Shown here: piece after piece, positions 4,280-24,584 of the stretch
How positions within the stretch are numbered: position 1 is the stretch's first letter
How the letters are laid out: every line of letters starts with the position of its first letter
Assembly: GCA_002306985.1 (NCBI GenBank)
Contig: DBTJ01000056.1
Span: 13,894-39,112 of the forward strand
From: Verrucomicrobia bacterium UBA1319
GTDB taxonomy: Bacteria > Verrucomicrobiota > Verrucomicrobiia > Limisphaerales > UBA1319
Direction of reading: 5' to 3'
Length of the DNA: 25,219 bases
The notes under the pieces: model-generated
Told to the model about the DNA's origin: nothing
The model's input: only the letters and a program-made list of their open reading frames with translations
Databases searched by the model: none
Made by a program: the position numbers and the translations under genes

Positions 4280-6646
4280 ATGATTAATGCGCGAAAGGTT
4301 GACCGAACTGTACGAGAGCCGAGGCTGGGGCGTCGCTGCTTTGTTTACTTAGCCATCGCTTGGCTGCTCATGCCGTCCACGGCGTTGCGCGCCCAGAATT
4401 CTAAACCGAACGCGGCCGCCGCTGCGCCGGCGGCCCTGTCCGCCAATCCGGACGCGCAACTGCCCGGAACGCCGGATGAAATCGATCGCGCGATCGCGCA
4501 AATCGAATCCCGGCTCGCGCATGTGCGTGAGCGGGCGACCGCCGCCGCTCCCGAGGCCACCCCGGACGAGCGGGTCGAAAAACAGCGGTTGGTCCAGCAA
4601 TGGACGGCCGCGCTGGACCTGCAATCCCGCCTGTGGCGGCGGTTAAATGACGTTCGCCGCCTCAACCAGGAGCGCGCCACCGAAAGCCAGAACTGGCGCG
4701 GCTTCACCGAGCCCCCGCCCTACTCGCTGGCGTTGGTCGAGGGGCTTCGCGACGCCATCGCGGGGCAGCGCCTCGAAGTGCAAAACCGGCAAATGATGCT
4801 CACGATTTTCGAAAACGGGGTCGAACACGGCGCGGTCCTGCTCGAAAATAGCCGCAAGCAAGCCCGGTTGGTCCGCGACCAGACCGAAGAAACGGACGCG
4901 CCAAGCCCCCGGCGGCTCTGGCTCCTACAGTTGGCTGACGCGCGGGTGCAAGCTCACGAAGCCATGGTCGAAGCGTCCGAAAAAGGGCGGCTCGTCATGC
5001 TCGAATCCCTGAGCGGCCTCCGCCAGTACATCACCTTTCTGGAACGTAAATTGGCCGCCGCCCAAATCCAAGCCCGGTTCACCAAGGCGGATTTCGACGC
5101 CATCCTCGTCCAGCAAAACGACAAACGGGAGGCGTTGCGAATCGAACTTAACGACGTCATCACCAAAGACGCCGAATTACGCCGCGCCCTCGCGGACGCC
5201 CGCGACAGCCTGCGCCAAGCGCAATCGGCCTCCCCCGCCCCACCCGCCGACCGGCTCCAAAGCTTGCGGATCGCCGTGCGGGCGGGGCAAATCCGCGCGG
5301 AAACCAGTGAGTTCAAAGTGGACTTCCTGCGAGGCTTCCAAGTTCTGGCGGATAAGAGCCAGGACTTGTGGGAAGACCGTTTCTGGGCCACATCCAACCA
5401 CTCGCTAGCCGAGTTGCGAAACAAGCGCCAGGTCTGGCTCGACACCTATGAAACGTTGCGCCCCTGGAAAATCTACGCCGAATTGAAACTTTCCGCCGCC
5501 GCGCAAGCTTCAAACGAAGCCAACGGCCTATCCGGCCCGCATGAATCCACGGAGGAACAAGAACTGGCGAAGCAAAGTCAGCCCGCCTTGGATGAACGGG
5601 TCGCGATTTGCCAGCGCGCGTTAAATAAATTCGCCCAGCTGGAAAATCTCCGCGAACGGCTGCTGGCGGACTTGGCGGAGCAAGAAGGAAAGTTATCCTT
5701 CACCAGTAAAGCCCAGTACGTGCTCGATGGCCTCCACGCCTTTCTCGGCCGCCTCTGGAACACCGAACTGTACGTCGCGGAAGCCTCGGTCATCGCCGAC
5801 GGCCAAAAGATTTCCGTCCCGCGCATCATCACGCTCGGCAAAGTCGCCATCGCCCTGGGCATTTTTATGTCCGGAATGGCCGTTGCGCTCTGGGGTCGAG
5901 GCGCGGTGAAACGGACCGCCTTTCGCTGGTTCAAGGCCGGAGATCTGGCCGCCGACATCGCCGCCAAAACCGCCGCCGGTCTGGCTGTGATCATCGCCCT
6001 ATTCGTAGCCATGGCGTCGGTCCGCATTCCCTGGACCATCTTCGCCTTCATGGGCGGCGCGCTGGCCATCGGAGTCGGCTTCGGCGCGCAAACACTCATC
6101 AATAATTTCATCAGCGGCTTGATCTTGCTATTCGAACAGAGCATCCGCGCGGGCGACATTGTGCAGGTGGGCGGCCAACGCGGGCGCGTGGACTTCATCG
6201 GCTTCAGAAACTCGCTGATCCGGCGCCCGGACGGCGTGGACGTGCTGGTGCCCAACAGCAAATTTCTCGAATCGGAAGTCGTCAACTGGACGCTCACGGA
6301 CAACCTCGTGCAATATAAAATTGCCGTGGGCGTAGCCTATGGCTCGTCGTTGAATAAAGTATCCGCCCTCCTCGCGCAGGCCGCGCAGGAACATCCGACC
6401 ACCATGAAAACTCCGGCGCCAAAAGTGTTGCTGGAGGAATTCGGCGACAACACCTTGATGTTCGCGCTGGTATTCTGGATCAGCCTGCGCCCCGGCGTGG
6501 ACGACTCGATGGTTCGCAGCGAATTGCGCCACCGCATCCACGCGCTGCTTGAACAGGCGGGCATCGCCCTCGCCTTCCCGCAACGCGATGTGCATCTGGA
6601 TTCCACTACCCCCATCGAAGTGAAAATCGTGAATCCACCCGCATAA
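4280..6646 (+). CDS. MscS-family mechanosensitive channel with a long N-terminal periplasmic coiled-coil domain (MscK/KefA-like architecture)
   Basis: 788 aa: signal peptide, then about 480 aa of Q/E/R/L-rich coiled coil, three predicted TM helices (aa 520-600), then the MscS core signature 'LINNFISGLILLFEQSIRAGDIVQVGGQRGRVDFIGFRNSLIRRPDGVDVLVPNSKFLESEVVNWT'. Confidence 0.85.
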   Translation: MINARKVDRTVREPRLGRRCFVYLAIAWLLMPSTALRAQNSKPNAAAAAPAALSANPDAQLPGTPDEIDRAIAQIESRLAHVRERATAAAPEATPDERVEKQRLVQQWTAALDLQSRLWRRLNDVRRLNQERATESQNWRGFTEPPPYSLALVEGLRDAIAGQRLEVQNRQMMLTIFENGVEHGAVLLENSRKQARLVRDQTEETDAPSPRRLWLLQLADARVQAHEAMVEASEKGRLVMLESLSGLRQYITFLERKLAAAQIQARFTKADFDAILVQQNDKREALRIELNDVITKDAELRRALADARDSLRQAQSASPAPPADRLQSLRIAVRAGQIRAETSEFKVDFLRGFQVLADKSQDLWEDRFWATSNHSLAELRNKRQVWLDTYETLRPWKIYAELKLSAAAQASNEANGLSGPHESTEEQELAKQSQPALDERVAICQRALNKFAQLENLRERLLADLAEQEGKLSFTSKAQYVLDGLHAFLGRLWNTELYVAEASVIADGQKISVPRIITLGKVAIALGIFMSGMAVALWGRGAVKRTAFRWFKAGDLAADIAAKTAAGLAVIIALFVAMASVRIPWTIFAFMGGALAIGVGFGAQTLINNFISGLILLFEQSIRAGDIVQVGGQRGRVDFIGFRNSLIRRPDGVDVLVPNSKFLESEVVNWTLTDNLVQYKIAVGVAYGSSLNKVSALLAQAAQEHPTTMKTPAPKVLLEEFGDNTLMFALVFWISLRPGVDDSMVRSELRHRIHALLEQAGIALAFPQRDVHLDSTTPIEVKIVNPPA

Positions 6647-6794
6647 ATCACACCCCAATCCACCCAGCAAGCCGCCAGCGGTAGTTTGCTTTCACCGCGG
6701 CCGGGGCTTTAACCCGGCCTCCCAGGTCAAGGCGTAAAACAGCATCACATCGGCGTATAAAAAGCCCGAAGCCAAATTGGCGACGAATTGCCGC

Positions 6795-7097
6795 TCACCG
6801 CCACCCTAATGAAAGGCCGCCGAACGCCAACCTCTGGATCATCGCGGGAACAACCTGAAATTCCCGCGTCAGCTTGGCCAATTTGTCCCCATCGTGGCAC
6901 CCTTCAACCAAACCTAATCCCATGTCGGTGGCGGTGACGCCCATGCCCATGATAATAGGGGCGGAAGCAATATCTCCTCCCGTTTCACGCCCGGCGCCAG
7001 CCAGCCATTCCGCAAATCCCGCCAAGGCGCCGCGCGGCGCGCCAGGCCAGATGTTTTTCCAGCAAGAGAGCCGTGTTCGCCTAGCCGCGAAAATCAT
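6795..7097 (-). CDS. Hypothetical small ORF, possibly a gene remnant; the frame stays open upstream to about 7252 without a convincing start
   Basis: 100-aa ORF whose C-terminal half looks protein-like (AGAGRETGGDIASAPIIMGMGVTATDMGLGLVEGCHDGDKLAKLTREFQVVPAMIQ). Third-position GC is only about 60% against about 75% in confident genes here. The same-frame stretch upstream (7098-7252) is Arg/Trp-rich and not protein-like. I recognise no family. Confidence 0.25.
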   Translation of the reverse strand: MIFAARRTRLSCWKNIWPGAPRGALAGFAEWLAGAGRETGGDIASAPIIMGMGVTATDMGLGLVEGCHDGDKLAKLTREFQVVPAMIQRLAFGGLSLGWR

Positions 7098-7356
7098 CCT
7101 CCAGGCAACCGGACGCCAGCGCCCTAATCGTATCGAAATACCAGGCGCATTCAGGATACGACGCCAAGGGTCGCCCCTCCAATTCTTGCAGCGTTTGGCG
7201 CCATCAGCGCGACAAGTGACGCCGCAAATCCGGGTAGCGTTTGTCCCCCGTTGCTAGCTCACAATATCCCAAAGTCGAGTTCAAGGTGACCAGGTACGCG
7301 CCTTCGTTTCGGTATTCCGCGAGTTGGGATAAATCATTGCCGGGCGACCGTAATTC

Positions 7357-7686
7357 CTAGGCTGCTATCGGAATTAGGAGGTCCATGAACTTGCGCATTT
7401 GTTTTTTGGCGGGCGCTCTTTCCGCCGAGTTTTTGAAGGCGAGATTAGCATAAGCTGGCGCCGGAATGGCGAACGGATAAAGGCGGCCTGCGGGGACTAT
7501 GTCGCAGTCTTTCAAAACTCGCGAGCGAGACGCCTCCGGCTTTTCCAGCCAGGCGTCAAATCCACGCCTCAAACGTTGCGCCACCCCCGCGACCACCCGC
7601 GCCGGGGACGTGTCCGATTGGGCGGGCGGAGTTTTCTCGAACATCCCCGCTAGAGCGGGGTTGGTGGCGACCAAATGGGCATTCAC
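7357..7686 (-). CDS. Hypothetical small ORF (109 aa, GTG start); may be spurious or a fragment
   Basis: ORF-track entry starting at GTG 7686. No recognisable motif. It is in a different frame from 6795..7097, with a 259-bp gap between them. The surrounding 1.4 kb has no confident gene. Confidence 0.2.
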   Translation of the reverse strand: MNAHLVATNPALAGMFEKTPPAQSDTSPARVVAGVAQRLRRGFDAWLEKPEASRSRVLKDCDIVPAGRLYPFAIPAPAYANLAFKNSAERAPAKKQMRKFMDLLIPIAA

Positions 7687-7795
7687 CCAAACCGCCAGGA
7701 AAGGAACGATCGGCAGCCATCGCAGGAAACCACGCGGGTGAATTTAAGCGGCCTATTTTCGGCCACCCCAAAAGACCCGTTGATTATTGCGAGAT

Positions 7796-7824
7796 TTGAC
7801 AATTAGCTAAACTGTGTGATAAGT
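7796..7824 (+). promoter_or_regulatory. Sigma70-like promoter candidate: TTGACA (7796-7801), 17-nt spacer, ATAAGT (7819-7824); a second TATAAGT lies at 7833-7839
   Basis: Seen directly: gatTTGACAattagctaaactgtgtgATAAGTtggcgctgTATAAGT. An AT-rich island in GC-rich DNA, about 270 nt upstream of the flotillin start on the same strand. Confidence 0.4.
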
Positions 7825-7848
7825 TGGCGCTGTATAAGTCAGCCTAAG

Positions 7849-7872
7849 TTGTCTTTCCTTCCTGAAAGACAA
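7849..7872 (+). promoter_or_regulatory. Perfect 9-bp inverted repeat ttgtctttc / gaaagacaa around a 6-nt loop (cttcct), about 25 nt downstream of the candidate -10
   Basis: Seen directly. There is no downstream U-tract, so it is not a classical terminator. It may be an operator or a 5'-leader hairpin for the flotillin transcript. Confidence 0.4.
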
Positions 7873-8094
7873 CGCGGGGGAACCAAATTCCCGGCTTGCG
7901 CGGGGGGACATACGTGCCAGCGCAGCCAGGACGGGGCGCAAGGCCGCGGGCAACCGCGACCAAGGTCACTTTCAAGACCAAGCCCGTCAGCTAACCTCGT
8001 CGGCCATTGGAAGGGCGACCCTCTTACGCCGCGGAATAACGGCGCACAAGCTCACCCCGTAAAAACAAGCGGCGCCACGCCAGGGCTTTGACTC

Positions 8095-9921
8095 ATGGCG
8101 ACGCGCCAAGCATTGGAGCAAACTATGCACGCAGATATCGCGGTTTTAGCCGCCTTAACCTTGAGTCAGTGGGGCTGGCTGGGAATTGGCGCGCTCGGCG
8201 CGTTGCTGGCCGCCCCCATCGTTACGGGCGCGGTGTTCATTCACGAACGGCAGGTGGGCGTGGTGATTAAAAAATTCGGTTCCCGCTCGCTCGCGCCCGG
8301 TCAGCTCATCGCCCAAGCGGGCGAATCGGGTTACCAGGCGGACACGCTGCCCCCGGGGCTGCACTTCGGCTACTGGATCTGGCAATATCGCGTGATCAAG
8401 GCGCCGGTCATCATCGTGCCCCAGGGCGAAATCGCGCTGGTCGTGGCCGCCGCCGGAGCGTCGATTCCGGCGGAACGGATCTTGGGCAAGATTGTCGCTT
8501 GCGACCATTTCCAAGATAGCCGAAAATTCCTGGCCGACGGCGGCGAGAAAGGCCGTCAATTGGGCATCCTCACTTCCGGCACGTACCGGATCAACAGCGC
8601 CTTGTTCAACGTGATCACCAGCAAGAACGCGATGAATCACGGGATGATGCCCGGGCAACTCCAGTTGCTCCGGGTCGAGCCGGACCAAGTCGGCATGGTC
8701 ACCACGCTCGATGGCAAACCCATCGAAACCGGCGAAATCGCGGGAGCCATCGTGGAAGGACACGACAATTTCCAGAATGGCCAGATCTTTCTCGACCACC
8801 TGGGCCGCCGCGGCTTGCAGGAGCAAATTTTGCTCTCGGGCACCTGGAATTTGAACCCGTGGTTGGTACAGGTGGAGCAAGTGCCCATGGTGCAAATCCC
8901 CATCGGCTATGTCGGCGTCGTCATTTCCTATGTGGGCATGGCGCATGAAGACGTAAGCGGCGCGGCCTTCAAACACGGCGACCTAGTGAATACCGGGCAC
9001 AAAGGCGTCTGGGTGTCCCCGCTATATCCCGGGAAACACCCGATCAACACGCGCATTATGAAAGTGGAGCTGGTGCCCACGACCAACATCGTGCTCAACT
9101 GGGCCAGTCGCACCGAGTCGCACAACTACGACGCCAAGCTTTCGTCGATCACCGTGCGTTCGCGGGACGGTTTCGGTTTCAATCTCGACGTGGCGCAAAT
9201 CATCCACGTGGGCGCGCTGGACGCGCCCAAGGTGATTTCCCGCGTTGGGTCGATGCAAAACCTTGTGGACCACGTACTGCAGCCGATTGTGGGAAATTAT
9301 TTCCGCAATTCGGCGCAAAACCACACGGTGCTCGATTTTCTCGGCGCGCGCAGCGAACGCCAGAAGGAGGCCGCCGAACACATTCGCGCCGCTCTGGGAG
9401 CGTACGATGTCCAAGCCATCGACACGTTGATCGGCGATATCAATCCGCCCGCCGAGCTGATGCAAACCCAAACGGATCGTAAAATCGCCGAAGAACAGCG
9501 CAAGACTTACGAGGTGCAGGAGGCGGCGCAAAAGCAGCGGCAGCAATTGGTCCGGCAAACATCCCTGGCCGATATCCAGCATCAAGTGGTCGGCGCGGAG
9601 CAAGGCGTGAGCATCGCCGAATTAACGGCCAACGCCCACATCAAACAGGCCACCGGCAACGCCGAAGCCGTGCGGCTTCAAGCCCATGGCGAGGCGGAAG
9701 CGATCCGCGCCACCGGCACGGCCAAAGCCGAGGCCTATCGCGCGGGAGTCGAAGCGCTCGGCGCGCCAGGCTACACCGTGATGCAATTGATGCAGACCGT
9801 GGGCGAACGGAATGTCCGCATCGTGCCCGATGTGGCGGTTACCAGCGGATCGCGCACCGGACTAGTGGATGCCATGCTGGCCATGCTCATCAAAGAGCGG
9901 CAGGACGCCAAGCCCGTTTAA
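8095..9921 (+). CDS. Flotillin-like SPFH/band-7 protein (YqiK/FloT family) with an N-terminal membrane anchor
   Basis: 608 aa. N-terminal TM segment (IAVLAALTLSQWGWLGIGALGALLAAPIVTGAVFI), an SPFH-like region, then the flotillin-type Ala/Glu-rich repeat tail: 'EVQEAAQKQRQQLVRQ...LQAHGEAEAIRATGTAKAEAYRAGVEALGAPGYTVMQLMQTV'. This resembles the E. coli YqiK 'AEAEAYRIRTVAEAEA...KAEAYRQYNQAAL' region as recalled. Confidence 0.7.
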   Translation: MATRQALEQTMHADIAVLAALTLSQWGWLGIGALGALLAAPIVTGAVFIHERQVGVVIKKFGSRSLAPGQLIAQAGESGYQADTLPPGLHFGYWIWQYRVIKAPVIIVPQGEIALVVAAAGASIPAERILGKIVACDHFQDSRKFLADGGEKGRQLGILTSGTYRINSALFNVITSKNAMNHGMMPGQLQLLRVEPDQVGMVTTLDGKPIETGEIAGAIVEGHDNFQNGQIFLDHLGRRGLQEQILLSGTWNLNPWLVQVEQVPMVQIPIGYVGVVISYVGMAHEDVSGAAFKHGDLVNTGHKGVWVSPLYPGKHPINTRIMKVELVPTTNIVLNWASRTESHNYDAKLSSITVRSRDGFGFNLDVAQIIHVGALDAPKVISRVGSMQNLVDHVLQPIVGNYFRNSAQNHTVLDFLGARSERQKEAAEHIRAALGAYDVQAIDTLIGDINPPAELMQTQTDRKIAEEQRKTYEVQEAAQKQRQQLVRQTSLADIQHQVVGAEQGVSIAELTANAHIKQATGNAEAVRLQAHGEAEAIRATGTAKAEAYRAGVEALGAPGYTVMQLMQTVGERNVRIVPDVAVTSGSRTGLVDAMLAMLIKERQDAKPV

Positions 9922-12386: not shown

Positions 12387-14063
12387 CTATTTCGGTCGCA
12401 ACCGCCCGCCATTCGCCAGCGTGTACGTCTTGCCATCAAGCCATCGGTTGGCGGCCAGGCTGGCGTCATAGCGCACCTCATGGCCATCGCCGCGAATATT
12501 GGGGATGGCGCCATCCACGATGCTTTTGGCATCGGTGAAGCTCGTAACCAGGGAATCTTTGGTCACCACCCAGGTGCTGGTGGCATCGAGCGCGAGCGCG
12601 CCGCCTTGAATCGCGCCGGTTAGCGTTGTTCCATTGCGCAAGGAGGCCGACACCGAGCTGATTTTGTCGCAAGTGATATCGCCCGCCAGGGTCTGGCCGT
12701 CGGCGGTGAACACGGCATGGCCGCCATTCGCTCCGCTGCGTCCCCAGCGACCCGCGCTGGCGTTGATGAGCACTCCGGAGGCGGCCACCACTTCGACGCC
12801 GGACAAGTCGATGACCCCCGTCGAATTCGCCACGTAAAACAGCGGCCCGGCGGCGGCTTTGAACGATCCGCCTTTCATCGTAAAGGCGCCCCGCCGGCCC
12901 TCGGCGTCGCCCGAAAAACTCTGGTAAATCATCACTCCGCATTTGGCGGCGCAGGTGAGCGCGCAATTCGTCAAGGTGACGGAGTTTTTTCCCTCGATCA
13001 CGACCGCCTCGGAAGCGGTGGCGGTAAAGGTGGCGCCGGAAGCCTGAATAGCGCCGGTCGAATAGATCCCCGGTGACGTGGTGCCGCGAGTCGTCATCGC
13101 GCCGCCCTCGACGTAAACCATGCCGCCGCCGCGGTCCGTGGCCACAGCCGCCGCGCGGGTGCGCGAGGTGGTAATCGTCACATTGGTGAGCGCCAAAGCG
13201 CCGCGCGCGCTCGCCATCGCCCCGTGGCCCGCGTCGCCGGCCGCCACAATGGTCCCGCCAGTCATCGCCACGGACGAGCCTATGCCTGAGGCAAAAAGCC
13301 CGTTAGCCCCGTGGCCGGTGGTTTTGATCGAACCGCCCAGCAGCGTGATTTTGCCCCCCTTGGCGGCGAGTACTCCGGCGTTAAGCCCGTAAAAACTGCT
13401 GTTTTCTTCGGAAGACGTATGGCCGCTGGTGACCACGATCGGATTGTCCAAGCTCAGTTTGCCGCCGTTCAAGACGCACACGCCGGAGACGTCCATATTC
13501 GTCGAAACATACGTCCCACCGGTGAAATTCGTGACAATCCCGTCCACCAGCAACACCCCGCTCAGCTTATAAGCGCCTCGCTCGCCCGTGCCTGGCGGAC
13601 GGTTGGAGGACTTGGATTTGCCCCCGGGACCACGATTAGAGGGAGGCCTGCCGGAGTCGCCACCGAACGAGGGTCCGCCCGCATCGAACGACGAGCGGCC
13701 GCCACTCCGCTCCGAGAAACCACCACTGGAGCTTGCGCCACTGACACTACTCACCGAGGACTGATCCTCGCCACCGCCGCCGGACATCGGTCCACCCTCG
13801 TCTCCGCCCGGCATCGGCTCCCCTTCCTCAGCGCCGCCCGGTCCGCCGTCCGGTCCGCCACCAGGCCCGCCGCCAGGACCGCCACCGGATGGCGGCTCCT
13901 GCCCCTTTACCCCACTAGCGGGGCCGACCGCCAGCAACGCCAAAATCAGCGCCCCCGCCGCGCCGCGGCAGAAATTACGGAGGCCGACACCGCCCGATTT
14001 CACCACCACAACGTCTGCGCGCCTATCCCGGTTGCGATCCTCTTCAGGTTTCATAACTTTCAT
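12387..14063 (-). CDS. Secreted protein with an approximately 110-aa Gly/Pro/Ser-rich low-complexity linker followed by a repetitive beta-helix-like (pectate-lyase-fold / adhesin-like) domain
   Basis: 558 aa with a signal peptide (GAAGALILALLAVGPASG). Linker residues 55-165 read 'PPSGGGPGGGPGGGPDGGPGGAEEGEPMPGGDEGGPMSGGGG...SGGRSSFDAGGPSFGGDSGRPPSNRGPGG'. The remainder is Gly/Thr/Ser/Ala/Asn-rich with periodic 'TGG', 'NGG', 'GxIxL' and 'VT..T' strands typical of right-handed beta-helices. The C-terminus shares a module with other secreted proteins here (see findings). Confidence 0.55.
   Translation of the reverse strand: MKVMKPEEDRNRDRRADVVVVKSGGVGLRNFCRGAAGALILALLAVGPASGVKGQEPPSGGGPGGGPGGGPDGGPGGAEEGEPMPGGDEGGPMSGGGGEDQSSVSSVSGASSSGGFSERSGGRSSFDAGGPSFGGDSGRPPSNRGPGGKSKSSNRPPGTGERGAYKLSGVLLVDGIVTNFTGGTYVSTNMDVSGVCVLNGGKLSLDNPIVVTSGHTSSEENSSFYGLNAGVLAAKGGKITLLGGSIKTTGHGANGLFASGIGSSVAMTGGTIVAAGDAGHGAMASARGALALTNVTITTSRTRAAAVATDRGGGMVYVEGGAMTTRGTTSPGIYSTGAIQASGATFTATASEAVVIEGKNSVTLTNCALTCAAKCGVMIYQSFSGDAEGRRGAFTMKGGSFKAAAGPLFYVANSTGVIDLSGVEVVAASGVLINASAGRWGRSGANGGHAVFTADGQTLAGDITCDKISSVSASLRNGTTLTGAIQGGALALDATSTWVVTKDSLVTSFTDAKSIVDGAIPNIRGDGHEVRYDASLAANRWLDGKTYTLANGGRLRPK
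13835..13895. repeat. Imperfect tandem 12-bp repeat (ccgccNccNggN, x5) encoding (G)GGP repeats of the low-complexity linker
   Basis: Seen directly: ccgcccggt ccgccgtccggt ccgccaccaggc ccgccgccagga ccgccaccggat on the plus strand, which reads GGGPGGGPGGGPDGGPGG on the minus strand. Confidence 0.6.
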
Positions 14064-14217: not shown

Positions 14218-15861
14218 TTACCCATCGAGTGGTTCCCAGCGCCGCTGGCCAATCCGAGTTCGCAATCCAATATAAGCCGCGATCGCCAGCCCGGATTCCA
14301 CGAACACCAACCACCCAAACCAGCCACCGGACCAAGCCGCCGCCGCCAGCCCGGACAACACCAACGACAATAACATCAATCCGAACATGCTGAGCCCGCG
14401 CCCGGCGCTTTTCGCCTCCTCCGAGGGCGCCGAGAACGGCACAAACGCCGCTGTCGCGCAAGGTACCAGCGAAATGGCCGGCAGGGCGATGAGCCCCGGC
14501 AACAACAGCAATAATTGGGAACGATCCGGAGCCAAAAACCAAGCCGCAACCGCATACACAACCAGCAGTGGCGCCAACAATAGCCATACCACCGCCTGCC
14601 GCGCGCCCAGGGCGAGCGGCGCGGGCCCGGCGAGCGGGGCCAATCGGAACAAATCCGCCGCCTGCCATTGTTGCGAAAACCGCAGCATCTGCATCGCTAA
14701 CACGGGAATCAGACAAATATAGGTGCCGCCCAGCACGATGCCAAACGAGCCCAGGCCAGCTTTGCCATGGCTTTGCCACAGCAGCAATATGGGAAACACG
14801 AGCAGCGGCGCCAAACCGGGAAAAACGCGCAGCTTGACCTCGCGGTCGCGAACCAAGTAAGCTGCGGCAAGCAGAAACGAGGCGCGCGCGACCGGATCGC
14901 GCAACCCCCAGCAAAGGGGCGGCAGACCCGCCAGACGGTTAAGCCAGCGGCGCGGGGAACCGGGGGGCGACGGCCGGGCGGGCGCCGCCTCAGAGAGCGT
15001 TTGCAGTCCCAGTTCATAGTCGCGCGCCAATCGGCCAAACGACAACCAGAGCACGCCCGTCGTAACGACCACGCCAAACGCCCCCAGCGCCCATGAACTA
15101 GCGTCGCCGCTCCCCGCCAAGGCATCGTCGAAACCCGCGAACCACGCCGGTGGCAGCAAGCCAACCCACCACGCCTCCAGGCTCAGCGGCGCGCGGTCGG
15201 AAAACCGCCCGAGCAATTGCGGCGCCAGTTGCGCGCCCAGCACGGCAAAGATAGCCGTGAACACTTGGGCGGTGGTCATCACGCCATCCAGCCGCTCGCG
15301 GCCGAACCAGCGCAGGCAGAGCTGATACACGAGCACGACGGACCCGGCGCAAAAAAGCGCCGCCAGCACCGTCGAAAGGGCATGCGCCAGCGGGAAGCCC
15401 CAGCCGCCGTTGCGGCACCAGACCCCCACAAAGAACCCCGTCAAATTGAAAGCCCCCGCCAGCCAAAGGGAAACTTGCGCCAGCACCCCGACTTTCGCCC
15501 GCAGTAAAGCTTTCGGCGTCACCGGCCGGTGCAGCAAAATATCCGCCTCCTGGGAGTTGAATAGCATCTCGCCCGCCGAGCCCGCCACGAGCATCCCCAA
15601 AAATACCAGCGTCATCGCGTGCAAATAGAGCGCGAGCCCGAACACGGGTTTTCCCCAAAAGACGAACGCCATGAGCCCCATCAAGGTGTAAATCACCAAA
15701 GTTAACAGCAGCCTGGAGCCGATGGATTTTGGCGCGCTTTCCTTATGCAGCCCCCGCGCGCTCCGGCCGCGCAGGAAGAGCGTGAGAAAGAGCCGATGGA
15801 GCGTGCGCTCCATGGAGGGCGCCCTCGGGATGGGCGGCGACTGGTTGGCGGCGGCGCTCAT
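14218..15861 (-). CDS. ABC-2-type exporter permease, unusually long (547 aa, roughly 12 predicted TM helices, apparently two fused 6-TM halves)
   Basis: Highly hydrophobic with many predicted helices. Its start overlaps the stop of the upstream ABC ATPase gene by 4 bp (15858-15861), which implies translational coupling in an operon. Confidence 0.6.
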   Translation of the reverse strand: MSAAANQSPPIPRAPSMERTLHRLFLTLFLRGRSARGLHKESAPKSIGSRLLLTLVIYTLMGLMAFVFWGKPVFGLALYLHAMTLVFLGMLVAGSAGEMLFNSQEADILLHRPVTPKALLRAKVGVLAQVSLWLAGAFNLTGFFVGVWCRNGGWGFPLAHALSTVLAALFCAGSVVLVYQLCLRWFGRERLDGVMTTAQVFTAIFAVLGAQLAPQLLGRFSDRAPLSLEAWWVGLLPPAWFAGFDDALAGSGDASSWALGAFGVVVTTGVLWLSFGRLARDYELGLQTLSEAAPARPSPPGSPRRWLNRLAGLPPLCWGLRDPVARASFLLAAAYLVRDREVKLRVFPGLAPLLVFPILLLWQSHGKAGLGSFGIVLGGTYICLIPVLAMQMLRFSQQWQAADLFRLAPLAGPAPLALGARQAVVWLLLAPLLVVYAVAAWFLAPDRSQLLLLLPGLIALPAISLVPCATAAFVPFSAPSEEAKSAGRGLSMFGLMLLSLVLSGLAAAAWSGGWFGWLVFVESGLAIAAYIGLRTRIGQRRWEPLDG

Positions 15862-16628
15862 AACCGGAAGGTTTTAGCGAAATCCTCGGCCCGGCGCTCG
15901 ATCTCCGCGCCACCCGTCAGCCGCGTGAACAGCTTCTCCAGCGTCCCGGCTTGATGCGACGCCACCAGCTCGTCCGGACGCCCATCCAGCAACAGGCGCC
16001 CCTGGTCGATAATCAGGACGCGTTCGCACACCTTTTCCACCACGTCAAGAATATGCGAGCTATACACGATCGTCTTGCCCTCGCGCGCGAGCGTTTGAAT
16101 CAAGGCCTTGAACCCCACGGCCGCGTTCGCATCCAAGCCGTCCAGGGGCTCGTCGAAGAATACCACCGGCGGGTTATGGAGCAACGCCGCGGTGATCACC
16201 ACTTTGCGCCGCATGCCCTTCGAATACGCGCCCAGCAGTTTGTCCGTGAGCGTTTCGAAACTGAGATCGAAAAACGCGAGAAACTGCCGGATGCGCTCCC
16301 GGGCCGCCGCCTCCGGAATTCCGTACAAAGCGGCCACCATCTCCAAATACTCCAGCCCGGTGAGCGACTCGTAAACGGCTCCCGAGTCCGGCACAAACCC
16401 GGTCTGACGCTTCACTTCCAAGGTGTCGGTGGCCAGATCGAACCCCGCCACCGTGGCCGTGCCGCTGGTCGGCGTAAGCATACCCGTGAGCATCTTCAGC
16501 GTGGTGGTTTTACCCGCCCCGTTCGGCCCGAGAAAACCGACGATCTGACCGGCGGGAATATCGAAGGAAAGCCCCGCCACCGCCATTTGCGCGCCAAATC
16601 GTTTCACCAAGTTTTGGAGGTGGATCAT
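15858..16628 (-). CDS. ABC transporter ATP-binding protein (ABC-2 / bacitracin-type subfamily)
   Basis: Walker A 'GPNGAGKTT', Q-loop, signature variant 'YSKGMRRKVVITAALL' (the YSxGMxQR type seen in ABC-2 exporters), Walker B 'VVFFDEPLDGLD', H-loop 'YSSHIL'. 256 aa. Confidence 0.9.
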   Translation of the reverse strand: MIHLQNLVKRFGAQMAVAGLSFDIPAGQIVGFLGPNGAGKTTTLKMLTGMLTPTSGTATVAGFDLATDTLEVKRQTGFVPDSGAVYESLTGLEYLEMVAALYGIPEAAARERIRQFLAFFDLSFETLTDKLLGAYSKGMRRKVVITAALLHNPPVVFFDEPLDGLDANAAVGFKALIQTLAREGKTIVYSSHILDVVEKVCERVLIIDQGRLLLDGRPDELVASHQAGTLEKLFTRLTGGAEIERRAEDFAKTFRL

Positions 16629-19579: not shown

Positions 19580-22500
19580 ATGAAAAGGTGGTTCTACCTG
19601 GGGGGGATGGTCGCATATTTTGCGCTAGCGGGTTGGGCTCTTCGCGCGCAAGACCCGCTTGTCATTGATGGAGTCGCCGACCAACAAGTGGCCGCCGATG
19701 CCATCGCTTTTCGCGTTCCGGCCGCCGCCGGTTACACCTACACCATCTCACTGGATGGCCAGCGCGTGCCCACCGATGTCACGGTGAACGTCACCAATGT
19801 GAATTACCATGAGTTGCTCGCCGCGCGCGTCAACCTGGACACCGGAGCCACCACCAACCGGCTAATCCGGTTCATCATCCGGTCCTCCGAGCGGCGGAAT
19901 AGCGAATGGGGTCTCTCGCCTTGGGTACCCTATCCCGTGGTCAACGCGACCGCCGGCGAACTCGCGGGTGCCCACCTGCGGCTGCTGGCCCCCAAAGAAT
20001 ATCCTTTAGGTTTGGAAATCCCCGTGGTCGCGTGGATCGAAAACCCGGAGGGCAATCCCGTCCGCGCCAATGCGCAGATGCGGGCCAGCGGCTATCCCAC
20101 TATTCAATTACGGCGTGGCGCCGGCGCCGGTCTGCTTCCGGCCACCCAACCGGCGGGCGCCTTAAATTACGCTCCGTCATTGCCTGGCGTGACCGCGAAC
20201 CCGTCTATCAACCTCGAAAGTAATACCATCTGGACCTATGTCGGCGGTTTGCTTGATGGAGCGATCACCTGGCCCGCCAACTCCCGCATCGCCGTGACCA
20301 ACCACCTCGCCTTGACGGCTGGCGGCACCCTCACCATTGGCGAAGGCACGATTGTCCGGCTAAACAGCGGGGTTAACCTCACCAACGACGGCGCTTGGAC
20401 TATTAATGGCTCGGAAGCACGACCCGTGGTGTTCACCCCGGTAAATCGCGCGCACCCCTGGGGTGGCTTTTTCATGAAGCACAGCGGCGGCTCCCTCGTG
20501 GCCAACGGCACGATTTTTATCGCCAGCGGCGCGGACCCCAAGGGCGGCGCCGGGCACAAACCGCAACAGTGTCTTTTTTACATCGATGAGCGGCCGCGAC
20601 TGGCGCTGACCAATTGCGCGGCGATCGATCTGGCGGGCCAATTCGGACACGTCGCCTCCGGCATGACAAACGCCTCCGACACCGCCTGGACCGAAGTTAA
20701 TATCGTCCACACCTTGGTGCAGCGCTGTGTCACGGGCGGGGAATGGACCTGTTGCAAATTGAAACTGCTCCACTCCGCGATTTTGGAAGTGCCGTATGCG
20801 ACCTCCCAATTCGCGGACGATGACGAGGACGGCATCTATTTCACCAGCGGCGAATACGAGGTGCGCGATAGCGTCATTGGCTGGACCCGCGATGACGGCA
20901 TCGACGCCGGTAGCGGCTACGGCGGCTCGGTAGTCGTGAGCAATACCTGGATTGAAGCAACCTTCCATGAGGCTTGCGCCTGGTCCGGCGGCGGCGGCGC
21001 GTCCGGCACCCGGCGCACCATCAACAGCCATTGCGTGGCGATGAATTGCGGCCAGGGATACGAATGCGGCTGGAGCGCCGGAACCGCGTATTCACCGGCG
21101 GACGACGTAAATAATTGCCTAGCCATTGGCAACGGGATCGGCGCTCGGTTCGGGGATAATTATAATTGGAGCTATTACGGATTTCTGCGCGTCTCGGACT
21201 CCATCCTCCTCAATAATAACCGCGATGTCTGGGGATACAACTGGCAAGCGGATGCCGGGGGCTGGAGCTATCGCTCCGCGTATATGGACATCCAAAATAA
21301 TTTTCTAACTCGCCCTAATGCTTATCATCCGAACAATACCCTTTGGAACCCGGCCACGGATGGCTGGCGGCTGGCCGATTACACCACCACCCCGCCGGAT
21401 GCGCCGGTGGGTGTGGCTTTTGTCACCTGGACCAATCAACTCGACCTGGCCGAGATCTACCAAGGCATTCCAGTGGGCTTAAGCTGTTTTACGCCCCACT
21501 TTGTGAGCGTGAATTATGCGTTTGCGGACCCCCATGGCGTGCTTTCCAGCGGAACCTTGGAGTTCGCTCCGGGCGAGACGGTGAAGCGCATTTACCCAGC
21601 CAACTTCAGTACGGTGGACAAAACGTTCATAACCGTCACCTTGAGCCAGCCGGTGCAAAGTGAACTCACGGGCGAATCCCAAGTCACTTTCCAAGGTAGC
21701 ATGCCCGCGCCGCGGATTTCGTTTTGGTCGGACAGCGCCTCGCTGGACCGGGCGCGAGCGGCCGAAGGCGTGGCGTTAGTCTTGAGCGCGCCTGCGGCGG
21801 AATCGGTGACGGTCGAATGCGCCTGGGAAGTTTCTGAAAAAGTCCTAACCAACATCACGGTCACGTTCCTGCCGGGGCAAACCCTTCAGTGGGTGTCCGC
21901 GCCCGAATTGAGCGGCGTGGATCAACCCTTGGTCCGTCTCACCTTAAGTCATCCCACGGCGGCGCTTTTGGACGCCAAAGGCCATTTTTATTGGGTGCCA
22001 ACCCGCGCAACCCCCACGAATCGGATACTGCTGAATAAAGGGGCATCCTGGAAATACAATGACGCCATCACCCAAGAAGTCGCCAACTGGTATGCCATCG
22101 ATTTTGACGATCAGGCTTGGAAGCAAGGGCCGGCGCCATTGGGATATGGTAACTCGCCGAGCGAAACCACAACCGTCGGCTATGGGCCGGATTCCAGCCA
22201 CAAACACCTTGCCACCTATTTCCGCGCCTATTTTGAAGCCACCAACGCCGCCAGCCTGTCCCGCGTCACCCTCCACCTGTTGCGCGATGATGCGGCCGTG
22301 GTTTACTTGAATGGCGCGGAGATACACCGCGAGAATCTACCCGTCGGCGCGATTCGGTTCGACACCCCGGCCAGCACGAATTTTGGGGGCACGGCCACGG
22401 CTTACGCCTCAACCGGCATTCCTATGAGTTCACTGCCCACGCCTGTGCGTGAAGGCACCAATGTGCTGGCCGTGGAGATTCATCAAAACAACGGCGGATC

Positions 22501-22738
22501 ATCCGATATCCTTTTCGATTTGGAATTAACCGGCAGTCCACAACCCGTCGAGGAAACGCAACCCATGCTCTATTGGGGAGCTTTTAATCGCACGAATCTG
22601 GTGCTGGCTTGGAGCGATCCGGCTTACCTCCTCGAGCAGGCCGAAACCGTGGCGGGTCCCTATACGAATGCGGTTCAAACCACCCCCCTAGAATGGAGTA
22701 CCACCGGCCAACAACAATACTTCCGGTTGCGAAAATAG
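19580..22738 (+). CDS. Large secreted protein: N-terminal Ig-like region, central right-handed beta-helix (pectin-lyase fold / CASH-like), a galactose-binding-like jelly roll, and a short C-terminal tail module
   Basis: 1052 aa with a signal peptide (MKRWFYLGGMVAYFALAGWALRAQD). Beta-helix-type repeats include 'TLTIGEGTIVRLNSGVNLTNDGAWTINGS' and 'DDDEDGIYFTSGEYEVRDSVIGWTRDDGIDAGSG'. The domain 'WKYNDAI...WYAIDFDDQAWKQGPAPLGYG...TYFRAYFEA...DDAAVVYLNGAEIHRENL...GTNVLAVEIHQNNGGSSDILFDLEL' resembles the GH2 N-terminal sugar-binding domain (LAVMVLRWSDGSYLEDQD) as recalled. It ends ...QQQYFRLRK. Confidence 0.6.
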   Translation: MKRWFYLGGMVAYFALAGWALRAQDPLVIDGVADQQVAADAIAFRVPAAAGYTYTISLDGQRVPTDVTVNVTNVNYHELLAARVNLDTGATTNRLIRFIIRSSERRNSEWGLSPWVPYPVVNATAGELAGAHLRLLAPKEYPLGLEIPVVAWIENPEGNPVRANAQMRASGYPTIQLRRGAGAGLLPATQPAGALNYAPSLPGVTANPSINLESNTIWTYVGGLLDGAITWPANSRIAVTNHLALTAGGTLTIGEGTIVRLNSGVNLTNDGAWTINGSEARPVVFTPVNRAHPWGGFFMKHSGGSLVANGTIFIASGADPKGGAGHKPQQCLFYIDERPRLALTNCAAIDLAGQFGHVASGMTNASDTAWTEVNIVHTLVQRCVTGGEWTCCKLKLLHSAILEVPYATSQFADDDEDGIYFTSGEYEVRDSVIGWTRDDGIDAGSGYGGSVVVSNTWIEATFHEACAWSGGGGASGTRRTINSHCVAMNCGQGYECGWSAGTAYSPADDVNNCLAIGNGIGARFGDNYNWSYYGFLRVSDSILLNNNRDVWGYNWQADAGGWSYRSAYMDIQNNFLTRPNAYHPNNTLWNPATDGWRLADYTTTPPDAPVGVAFVTWTNQLDLAEIYQGIPVGLSCFTPHFVSVNYAFADPHGVLSSGTLEFAPGETVKRIYPANFSTVDKTFITVTLSQPVQSELTGESQVTFQGSMPAPRISFWSDSASLDRARAAEGVALVLSAPAAESVTVECAWEVSEKVLTNITVTFLPGQTLQWVSAPELSGVDQPLVRLTLSHPTAALLDAKGHFYWVPTRATPTNRILLNKGASWKYNDAITQEVANWYAIDFDDQAWKQGPAPLGYGNSPSETTTVGYGPDSSHKHLATYFRAYFEATNAASLSRVTLHLLRDDAAVVYLNGAEIHRENLPVGAIRFDTPASTNFGGTATAYASTGIPMSSLPTPVREGTNVLAVEIHQNNGGSSDILFDLELTGSPQPVEETQPMLYWGAFNRTNLVLAWSDPAYLLEQAETVAGPYTNAVQTTPLEWSTTGQQQYFRLRK

Positions 22739-22860
22739 TTTACGCGTGAGACCACCGTCGGATATCTCCCACAAATCACCGGCTATACCGCCCCCGCCAA
22801 CCCCATGGTGAACCAGGCTTTCTCAAGATATTCCAGCTTGCTTCCAGGTACCTGGCAGGC

Positions 22861-22889
22861 TATAAATAATCAACCCATCAACCGGTTGA
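22861..22889 (+). promoter_or_regulatory. TATAAAT box (22861-22867) followed by a perfect 12-bp palindrome tcaaccggttga (22878-22889), upstream of the SBBP gene
   Basis: Seen directly: ggcTATAAATaatcaacccaTCAACCGGTTGAgtttttgcc. Candidate -10 plus operator. The T5 after the palindrome could alternatively make it a weak terminator for the upstream gene. Confidence 0.35.
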
Positions 22890-22925
22890 GTTTTTGCCAT
22901 TGCCGCGCGCATTGGCGAATCGGCG

Positions 22926-24584
22926 GTGGTGGATCGGAGTTCGCGAAAACCCAAAACCCATAGGGCCGGCAAAATGACATCGAATCATGGAATCCCAGCC
23001 CGGAACGCTTTCCGGCTAGAGTCCTTGAAGCTCAAAACACGTTGTGAACAGATCCAGTTTCAGGAAGCCGGACCGTCAAATAGTTGGGTCCGAGGCTCCG
23101 CCTCGCTAGGTGATCGCTCCTTGGCGCTCGCGCTAACCATTTGGCTGGGATTGTTAACCGGGCTGCCCGCGGGCAAAGCCGCAACCGCGCCGGCAAACTG
23201 GCTTTACACTAAAATGGGAACCAGTTACCTAGTTAAAGGCTTGGGTTTAACGGTTCACGACTATCAAGGTTGCACGATTGTGCTGGCGCAATCCGCACGG
23301 CTGGTAAAACTGGATAAGGACTTCATACGCCCCAACACGATTGCGTTTCAATCGAACGACTGGTTGCTGGTTAAATTCGGCCCCGACAAACGGCCGCTAT
23401 GCCTAAGTAAAGTTGGGGAGGGCGATTTTCCCTATTTCGTCCAACTGGTCACGGATCGACAGGGCAATATCTACGGTTTGGGGAATTTTCGCGGCAACGC
23501 GCGAATCGAGGACGGGAGCACATCTCATCCTTTGCCGAACCAGGGCAAAAATGATTTCCTCCTTGCCCAATGGAACTCAAAACTTGAATTCGTCTTCGCG
23601 CGCGCTTTCGGTGGCCCCGACTACGAATATGCCCATGGGCTTGCTCTGAGTTCGCAAGGTCACCTTATCTTATCCGGCACGTTTATGGGGAGCTTGTCCC
23701 TGCCCGGCATTGGCGCCACCCCCATATGCCTTTCCGGCCAGCAATTGAAATATGATTATTTCATCGCGGATATGACTTTCCAAGGGCAATGCCACTGGGC
23801 GCGGCGCGTTGGCGGGGCTGACTCCCTCATTCCCTCGGCGATTGGGGTCGATCCGGACGGTAATTGTCTGCTGACGGGCGGCTTTGAAACACGCCTGCAA
23901 TTTGACGGAGCCCCGGACTCGGCTAACTTGCGAAGTCGCGGCATGAGCGACTTTTTCCTGGTCAAATACCTCGCAAACGGAGATTTCGCCTGGGCGCGAC
24001 AAGGTGGCGGAACCAATGAAGACTATGGGGTGTGGGCGCTGGTGGATGAACAGGGCGGTTGCTACCTCACCGGCCGCTACGGACCGGGCGCGTGGTTCGG
24101 CGAAGGCCCCACCGCCATGACCCTGGCAGCCAAGGCGGACGCCGACATGTTTATGGCTTGCTATGACAGCCAGGGCAATTTGGCCGGCGCCTTGCGCGTG
24201 GGGGGGCCCGGTCCATGGGTCGATCGGCATTGGACGATCGTATGGGATGAACTCGGCAACCGCTATTTAGTGGGGAAAACCGCGCAACCCGCCCAACTGT
24301 GGCGATTTTCCGCGACGCCCGCCCAGGCCGCCAAGGAGCAGCCATCCCAGACCGCTCAGGCGGATTCCCGTTCCCGCTTCGACGCCATCGCACGCGCACC
24401 CGATGGTTCCATCCAAATCCTCCTTTCCAACCCGCGCACCGCCGTGTACGTGATCGAAGCCTCGGCCGACTTGAACACCTGGATCCCGATCAGCACCAAT
24501 CAAGCGCCCGGAGGCCAGCTGGTGATTAAGGATTTTCTATCCTCCGGCGCGCCGATGGGTTTCTTTCGCGTGCGCCAACCTTAA
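22926..24584 (+). CDS. Secreted SBBP (Gloeo_Verruco) beta-propeller repeat protein with the shared C-terminal tail module; start codon uncertain
   Basis: Six or more repeats of the D-x-x-G-N-x-Y-x-x-G-x-F type: DRQGNIYGLGNFRGNARI, SSQGHLILSGTFMGSLSL, DPDGNCLLTGGFETRLQF, DEQGGCYLTGRYGPGAWF, DSQGNLAGALRVGGPG, DELGNRYLVGKT. A hydrophobic signal-peptide-like segment (LALALTIWLGLLTGLPAGKAATAPA) begins at 23121 (a TTG). The ATG candidates 22926 and 22974 would make the 89-bp repeat coding. It ends ...GFFRVRQP. Confidence 0.6.
   Translation: MVDRSSRKPKTHRAGKMTSNHGIPARNAFRLESLKLKTRCEQIQFQEAGPSNSWVRGSASLGDRSLALALTIWLGLLTGLPAGKAATAPANWLYTKMGTSYLVKGLGLTVHDYQGCTIVLAQSARLVKLDKDFIRPNTIAFQSNDWLLVKFGPDKRPLCLSKVGEGDFPYFVQLVTDRQGNIYGLGNFRGNARIEDGSTSHPLPNQGKNDFLLAQWNSKLEFVFARAFGGPDYEYAHGLALSSQGHLILSGTFMGSLSLPGIGATPICLSGQQLKYDYFIADMTFQGQCHWARRVGGADSLIPSAIGVDPDGNCLLTGGFETRLQFDGAPDSANLRSRGMSDFFLVKYLANGDFAWARQGGGTNEDYGVWALVDEQGGCYLTGRYGPGAWFGEGPTAMTLAAKADADMFMACYDSQGNLAGALRVGGPGPWVDRHWTIVWDELGNRYLVGKTAQPAQLWRFSATPAQAAKEQPSQTAQADSRSRFDAIARAPDGSIQILLSNPRTAVYVIEASADLNTWIPISTNQAPGGQLVIKDFLSSGAPMGFFRVRQP
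23016..23104 (+). repeat. Copy 2 of the 89-bp perfect direct repeat
   Basis: Identical to 2816-2904. It lies inside the longest ORF of the SBBP gene, in frame, but with low third-position GC (about 59%) and rare codons, which suggests it is non-coding. Confidence 0.9.

Follow-up and report, generated by a model that had tools for sequence, protein, structure and literature searches.

The window analysed here, a 25,219-nucleotide stretch of contig DBTJ01000056.1 from Verrucomicrobia bacterium UBA1319 (G+C about 60%), encodes two neighbouring exported proteins, a beta-helix protein (gene A) and an SBBP beta-propeller protein (gene B). An initial annotation had described them as adjacent secreted proteins that share a C-terminal module ending in [FY][FY]R[LV]R. 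The sequences it quoted and their coordinates proved correct, and we found that the two ends, termed tail 1 and tail 2, are similar beyond chance at the profile level. The features of the two genes are as follows.

19580-22738, + strand: gene A (P0001), a 1052-amino-acid (aa) exported beta-helix protein bearing tail 1 (open reading frame and translation)
19580-19648, + strand: predicted Sec signal peptide of gene A, MKRWFYLGGMVAYFALAGWALRA followed by QDP (read by eye from the sequence)
22532-22561, + strand: Pro/Glu-rich linker GSPQPVEETQ ahead of tail 1 (sequence; Pro-rich linkers stand here in homologues too)
22562-22735, + strand: tail 1, a 58-aa fibronectin type III (FN3)-like module, short variant, with six strands A-B-C-C'-E-F
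22718-22729, + strand: YFRL, the F-strand (last-strand) motif of tail 1, followed by RK and the stop (sequence; aligned with YRV of the FN3 motif YxYRVxA)
22974-24584, + strand: gene B (P0121), an SBBP beta-propeller protein of 536 aa as called, bearing tail 2 (open reading frame; SBBP PF06739 and NF047494 matches)
23121-23180, + strand: hydrophobic signal-peptide-like segment of gene B, LALALTIWLGLLTGLPAGKA (sequence)
24312-24371, + strand: low-complexity linker ATPAQAAKEQPSQTAQADSR ahead of tail 2 (sequence)
24372-24581, + strand: tail 2, a 70-aa FN3-like module, long divergent variant, with six strands (translation, AlphaFold2 and profile scores)
24561-24572, + strand: FFRV, the last-strand motif of tail 2, followed by RQP and the stop (sequence)

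Read from the sequence, the predicted signal peptide of gene A combines a K- and R-containing n-region, a hydrophobic core and a site resembling A-x-A. The protein ends in ...PMLYWGAFNRTNLVLAWSDPAYLLEQAETVAGPYTNAVQTTPLEWSTTGQQQYFRLRK, with QQQYFRLRK as its final residues, and some of its homologues match Beta_helix (PF13229). Gene B ends in SRFDAIARAPDGSIQILLSNPRTAVYVIEASADLNTWIPISTNQAPGGQLVIKDFLSSGAPMGFFRVRQP, with MGFFRVRQP as its final residues and its stop codon at 24582-24584. As called from the ATG at 22974, about 50 aa of gene B precede the hydrophobic segment; the sequence suggests that the true start may be the in-frame TTG at 23121, which is preceded by AGGTGA (23107-23112) and would give a short signal peptide. 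The orthologue P0123 begins just ahead of the equivalent segment. Hidden Markov model (HMM) scans of the open reading frames (ORFs) of the window found the tail in gene A and gene B and in no other. Just before tail 1, residues ~840-983 of gene A (window 22100-22530) form a segment with the pattern W-x-x-x-x-F-D-D-x-x-W...G-Y-G, which had no Pfam match and recalls what we take to be a carbohydrate-binding module (CBM)- or galactose-binding-like domain of many verrucomicrobial exported proteins.

Relationship of the two tails

When the tails were aligned with MAFFT, the features common to both fell into one register: a hydrophobic strand ending in W/L, the motif Y-h-h-E-x-A, an aromatic W/Y and the terminal F[FY]R[LV]. 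Pairwise comparison by BLASTP gave no alignment of tail 1 with tail 2 at E<=100, an HMM built from the tails of gene A homologues only left tail 2 undetected (1.5 bits), and a tail-only query against a word-indexed database of 5.8 billion proteins returned no candidates. A joint alignment of both tail types was converted to a profile and searched against 1.84 billion representative proteins (50% identity clusters, E-values for the whole library), and an independent HMM was drawn from the matches, comprising 95 copies from proteins related to neither gene A nor gene B and none from the window. On the isolated tails this HMM scored 43.5 bits for tail 1 and 17.1 bits for tail 2, whereas the highest score among 2000 shuffled versions of tail 2 was 10.6 bits. 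When the window's 373 six-frame ORFs were ranked, gene A came first (38.7 bits, E 1.4e-11) and gene B second (13.0 bits, E 0.0015), and the best decoy ORF reached 5.8 bits. Comparison with the independent family by hhalign gave 99.6% for tail 1 (E 8e-24) and 96.0% for the tail 2 orthologues (E 3.9e-9). An iterated search seeded with three tail 2 orthologues alone grew from 8 to 39, 243 and 319 proteins; it recruited long variants first (P0264, P0273 and L037) and then, by round 2-3, short variants including gene A-type tails. Because of these links through the independent profile, hhalign and the iterated search, tail 1 (short variant) and tail 2 (long variant) are, on sequence comparison, divergent members of one family. 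A chance resemblance of two unrelated C-termini, in keeping with the missing BLASTP alignment and with the gene A tail HMM that misses tail 2, is refuted by the independent-profile scores, the shuffle control, the window-wide ranking, the hhalign values and the transitive iterated search, with the same six strands predicted in both tails also against it, and we give it practically no credence.

The family proved large: the library held 4544 matching representative proteins at E<=1e-3 and 125 at E<=1e-10. The two top library matches, P0133 (7432 aa) and P0134 (2240 aa), were rejected as non-members; their E-values are artefacts of ~8-bit matches summed over 20-34 identical repeats, so some of the 4544 matches will be of the same kind. 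We also noted a 956-aa ORF at 6351-9218 (- strand) of locus L002, ending in ...EAEQSNDLVTWHSG...AVTFLRLRVTRLP, which looks like a further divergent tail variant missed by the family HMMs.

Fold of the module and its kinship with FN3

The structures of both tails are AlphaFold2 predictions. The model of tail 1 had a mean confidence (pLDDT) of 87.3, with strands at residues 9-14, 18-23, 29-33, 41-44, 49-52 and 59-63, and that of tail 2 had 80.6, with strands at residues 3-8, 14-18, 25-31, 38-44, 49-52 and 64-68; both are predicted as the same six-stranded beta-sandwich with the same strand order. The best structural match of tail 1 was an Fn3-like protein of Clostridium thermocellum (PDB 3mpc). 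A sequence search of the PDB with the tail gave nothing significant, and its marginal matches were mostly FN3/Ig-type proteins. The library search also drew in giant proteins with classical Pfam fn3 repeats, such as P0153 (fn3 269 bits), and hhalign aligned the tail family with PF00041-positive repeats over 62 columns (97.9%, E 3.3e-13). In the resulting register, l-x-L-s-W corresponds to strand B, g-y-x-L-Q-x-a...G-P-W-t to strands C and C', and F-y-R-L to the FN3 F-strand motif Y-x-Y-R-V-x-A, and nothing in the tail family matches the final ~27 FN3 columns, which hold the FG loop and strand G. Because this register places FyRL on YRV with nothing to match strand G, it is well supported that the tail is a six-stranded beta-sandwich of ~55-75 aa, derived from bacterial FN3 and ending after the F strand with the G strand missing. 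The aromatic-aromatic-R-(L/V)-R motif is the FN3 F strand and not a linear signal; internal copies of the module keep it.

The module thus shares with FN3 a profile-level homology, a beta-sandwich topology with the strand order A-B-C-C'-E-F, the conserved W in strand B, Y/F-R-V/L in strand F and the capacity for tandem repetition. It differs in that six strands are predicted instead of seven, with no FG loop and no strand G after F, in its strong bias to the extreme C-terminus and its main limitation to Verrucomicrobiota, and in falling below the Pfam fn3 models: PF00041 was not matched at its gathering threshold, and the tails had no Pfam match of any kind at E<=10. Tail-type tandem proteins (P0135, P0146, P0161, P0162 and P0207) likewise had no fn3 match, isolated tails had no NCBIfam match at E<=1, and precomputed annotations from a newer Pfam release left the tail region blank in more than 100 carriers. 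The domain family is uncatalogued, as neither the Pfam-A nor the NCBIfam library searched contains a model for it, and a literature search found no paper describing the module. A precomputed PF28492.1 annotation is present on most gene A homologues and absent from gene A itself; PF28492 was ruled out as a model of the tail, since it is found on homologues without a tail as well.

Most conserved positions are core positions, namely the W of strand B, the L of strand C, the W at the start of C' and the F and L of strand F. Besides the last strand, the best-conserved stretch is C-loop-C' (L-E/Q-x-A...G-P-W), and the G-P-W turn between C and C' hardly varies among members of the gene A family.

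Position, cargo and distribution of the family

The position of the module was examined in the top 150 matches to a profile derived from terminal copies, and in loci seeded with the short-variant consensus. Copies could be mapped in 147 of the top matches, of which 61 were gene A-like, one was gene B-like and 85 were neither. The last copy lay no more than 8 residues from the C-terminus in 130 of these 147 proteins, and in 46 of the 48 ORFs from the loci and the window a genuine stop codon came immediately after it. In 110 of the 130 terminal copies, exactly 2 or 3 residues separate F[FY]RL from the end. The assignment of the tail to the extreme C-terminus in the initial annotation therefore stands as a description of most carriers, but not as a restriction: 58 of the 147 have 2-9 copies, as a rule lined up in tandem at the C-terminal end, and in two proteins the module directly follows the signal peptide (L002 9842-14089, + strand, ~1400 aa; L036 12468-19277, + strand, ~2270 aa). 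The record of the former is titled Candidatus Acidoferrum (Acidobacteriota). Since F[FY]RL persists in internal copies, where the same x-x-P and then a short linker come next, terminal copies have no signature of their own. Some small proteins (P0135, P0162 and P0201) consist almost wholly of tandem copies. Short Pro-rich linkers precede the first copy, with proline making up 12.7% of the preceding 18 aa compared with 6.4% overall. The initial annotation had named as one outcome that would undo its proposal a tail that was just the last strand of an FN3-type domain with no restriction to C-termini; what we found agrees with this in part, in that the tail is a whole FN3-type domain and is not restricted, but the strong C-terminal bias remains.

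The module is attached to a wide range of proteins. The cargo domains include S8 subtilase with a P-domain, RCC1 repeats, InlB B-repeats, LamG, Big_7, PKD, Ig, PA14/GLEYA, PATR, SBBP, FG-GAP, HYR, GH53, CBM20, DUF11 and beta-helix. An N-terminal hydrophobic segment of the signal-peptide type was present in 25 of 37 carriers that looked full-length, and most of the others resemble truncated gene calls.

Homologues of the two window genes were compared at their C-termini. A total of 223 gene A homologues were found, and the same tail is terminal in 111 of the 120 listed; one of the homologues, P0058, carries Ig and TSP3 modules and a long-variant tail. In five Planctomycete-labelled homologues (P0090, P0093, P0099, P0103 and P0109) the tail is replaced, as judged by eye, by an Asp-rich, dockerin-like C-terminal segment of the DxDxDG type, which had no Pfam match at E<=0.01. 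Tail 2 is kept in P0122 and P0123, the only close relatives (orthologues) of gene B. In more distant SBBP homologues of gene B from Bacteroidota, the terminal domain is either CHU_C (P0124, residues 745-827 of 831) or Por_Secre_tail (P0125, P0127 and P0128). Because tail, type IX secretion system (T9SS) C-terminal domain (CTD) and dockerin-like ends swap among homologues, the C-terminal slot of the gene A and gene B families is, as far as sequence tells, filled by different localisation-type modules in different phyla.

For the genomic context we scanned one genome per GTDB species. The diverse family alignment had no conserved stretch of 7-10 columns and the family consensus sequence served as the query, which biased the resulting 37 loci to the short variant. 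Taxonomy was taken from record titles, and 31 of the 37 loci carry titles of Verrucomicrobiota type (Pedosphaera, Limisphaerales, Limisphaera, Verrucomicrobiales or Haloferula); of the other six, five are titled as Bifidobacterium or Bifidobacteriaceae metagenome-assembled genomes and one as Candidatus Acidoferrum. The family is centred on Verrucomicrobiota (Pedosphaerales, Limisphaerales and Verrucomicrobiales), and the earlier proposal of one conserved, lineage-centred module on unrelated secreted proteins was borne out by these titles together with the unrelated, signal-peptide-bearing bodies of the carriers. Four loci titled 'uncultured Bifidobacterium/Bifidobacteriaceae' (L014, L023, L028 and L035) encode proteins of verrucomicrobial type, with PATR, LamG or Ig bodies and the tail. 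The tail-bearing bins with Bifidobacterium titles are probably mislabelled.

Neighbouring tail-bearing genes like the pair in the window were common, with three in a row at L001 and L035 and two at L008, L014, L016, L030 and L037. Together the loci hold 10 extra carriers in ~565 kb, a sample biased by this gene clustering. All-against-all clustering of the ORFs found no gene family beside the tail genes in more than 4 of the 37 loci, and the context yielded no candidate machinery. The dedicated sorting pathway suggested by the initial annotation found no counterpart in these neighbourhoods.

Function of the module

The identity of the module is well supported, and from it and the data above we infer a role. 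We consider it probable that this FN3-derived, G-strand-less, Verrucomicrobiota-centred domain, of which both tails are copies, acts as a folded localisation or binding handle. The module hangs on short Pro-rich linkers and is usually the last domain, single or repeated in tandem, of multidomain enzymes and adhesin-like proteins exported by Sec. As a handle it may hold its cargo to the cell envelope or to a polymer, or it may be recognised as a folded unit by outer-membrane export machinery, for which the Fn3 domain of Pel3/PelI offers a precedent; it would not be a short tag cleaved by a dedicated sortase-like enzyme. Two lines of argument favour such a folded handle. The tandem, internal and N-terminal copies, the lack of a terminal-specific signature and the lack of a recurrent neighbour gene argue against a tag in the style of PEP-CTERM, LPXTG or T9SS, and the terminal bias, the flexible linkers, the diversity of the cargo and the equivalence of the slot argue against a mere spacer.

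Several points weigh against this reading. Tail 2 is a weak member of the family (13-17 bits). The C-terminal statistics may overstate the bias, given a profile made from terminal copies and loci seeded with a consensus. The small tandem proteins P0135, P0162 and P0201 look like stalks or spacers, for which a purely structural role fits equally well. Clustering of the 37 loci gave no ligand, partner or conserved neighbouring gene, and the localisation role is deduced from sequence and predicted structure.

A passive structural role, in which the module is a lineage-specific FN3-type spacer, stalk or stabilising cap that neither localises nor binds anything, and its C-terminal position a by-product of multidomain assembly, is an unlikely alternative. 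It would account for the homology to ordinary repeated FN3 domains and the generic fold matches, for the proteins made largely of tandem copies and for the concentration of conserved positions in the core. However, one expects a spacer to separate functional domains, whereas in about 90% of carriers a flexible linker and then the module follow the last of them. In other phyla it is swapped for known localisation modules (the T9SS CTD and a dockerin-like tail), and the near-invariant G-P-W turn of the gene A family exceeds what a core requires.

The initial annotation had read the tail as a dedicated C-terminal cargo tag, a lineage-specific sorting signal like the T9SS CTD that is recognised by dedicated machinery and perhaps removed after transport. 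The extreme C-terminal position in about 90% of carriers, the constant end of 2-3 residues, the diverse cargo with signal peptides, the flexible linkers ahead of the module and its limitation to one lineage all agree with a tag. The tail also sits where T9SS CTDs sit in the Bacteroidota homologues of gene B, and T9SS CTDs are, like the tail, small beta-sandwiches at the C-terminus (PMC4804311). Against this stand the arrays of 2-9 copies, the internal copies with the same motif and x-x-P and the two N-terminal copies, as well as the absence of any neighbour gene family from more than 4 of the 37 loci and of any match to Por_Secre_tail, CHU_C, PEP-CTERM or other NCBIfam sorting models. We know of no C-terminal sorting signal that occurs in tandem, internally and N-terminally, and we regard a dedicated tag as improbable.

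The comparison with known sorting systems was made by models and motifs, and membership in T9SS CTD types A and B, PEP-CTERM, LPXTG and dockerin was rejected in each case; the earlier statement that the motif matches no known sorting signal was confirmed by these models. The type A model (Por_Secre_tail, PF18962/TIGR04183) matched neither the full proteins (E<=1) nor the isolated tails (E<=10), and the type B model (CHU_C, PF13585/TIGR04131) matched neither tails nor full proteins. The same library detected Por_Secre_tail in the Bacteroidota homologues P0125, P0127 and P0128 and CHU_C in P0124. Where type A domains are single copies confined to the extreme C-terminus, 58 of the 147 carriers have several copies and two have the module at the N-terminus. 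Neither tail has the hydrophobic helix of PEP-CTERM/exosortase substrates (TIGR02595), the motif and helix of LPXTG/sortase substrates are absent from both sequences, and NCBIfam gave no match for either system; the duplicated Ca-binding loop-helix motif of dockerin (DxDxDG-type) is absent from both tails. What the tail has in common with PEP-CTERM and LPXTG is a C-terminal position on many secreted proteins of one lineage and basic residues near the end, but it is a soluble folded domain with no signature motif and transmembrane helix.

The likeness to the T9SS CTD is closer, as both are small beta-sandwiches that close Sec-exported proteins of diverse function and are set off from them by a linker, and both fill the same slot in SBBP-propeller homologues. 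The tail differs in having no match to the sequence models, in occurring in tandem, internally and at N-termini, and in having six strands instead of the seven that de Diego and colleagues are said to have described in 2016 for the CTD sandwich. Its structural similarity to the T9SS CTD is no better than to any FN3 domain. The hosts of the tail are Verrucomicrobiota, whereas the T9SS is described, in PMC5445135 and PMC12398890, as confined to Bacteroidota/FCB (Fibrobacteres-Chlorobi-Bacteroidetes).

A precedent for recognition as a folded unit is provided by the pectate lyases Pel3/PelI, in which an appended Fn3 is a determinant of type II secretion, the C-C' loop of this domain is a key signal for recognition by the T2SS (type II secretion system), and the Fn3 is cleaved off after secretion (PMC7949064). 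As in gene A, an FN3-type module is appended there to a beta-helix polysaccharide-degrading enzyme, and in the tail family the C-loop-C' stretch is the best-conserved part besides the last strand. The Pel3 Fn3, in contrast, is N-terminal, seven-stranded and packed on the catalytic domain, and it occurs only in a few gamma-proteobacteria (PMC7949064). The two are likened by fold and arrangement, with no demonstrated sequence relationship, and by this analogy the comparison is a lead about mechanism and not evidence of membership.

A bolder proposal, which we hold to be doubtful and still less likely than a dedicated tag, is that the tail is an FN3 left open after strand F that serves as a general outer-membrane localisation ticket of Verrucomicrobiota, by a T2SS or a donor-strand-like mechanism. 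The conserved C-C' face might be recognised by the type II secretion machinery, as is the Fn3 of Pel3/PelI. Alternatively, the exposed F edge might take a strand from an envelope anchor or another subunit (donor-strand-like complementation), which would tether or polymerise the cargo at the surface. If either mechanism were true, sorting would depend on a folded domain in a way for which nothing comparable has been described in the Planctomycetes-Verrucomicrobia-Chlamydiae (PVC) group; if a localisation role of any kind is wrong, the module is one more FN3 variant.

Verrucomicrobiota are abundant in soil, freshwater and gut, and there has been essentially no study of how their many polysaccharide-degrading enzymes and adhesin-like proteins reach their place outside the cell. 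A single uncatalogued module that ends thousands of verrucomicrobial exported proteins, where other phyla put T9SS or dockerin-type modules, provides a testable handle on this question. The module merits a domain-family entry, which would improve the annotation of "hypothetical" proteins and the prediction of the verrucomicrobial surface and secreted proteome.

Elsewhere in the window, the neighbourhood of gene A and gene B includes a GH78-type rhamnosidase and further exported proteins. On the - strand (14218-16628), an ABC-transporter ATPase (15858-16628) overlaps a 547-aa polytopic membrane protein (14218-15861) by 4 nucleotides, and beside this pair lies the gene (12387-14063) of a 558-aa exported protein whose N-terminal region is Gly/Pro-rich.

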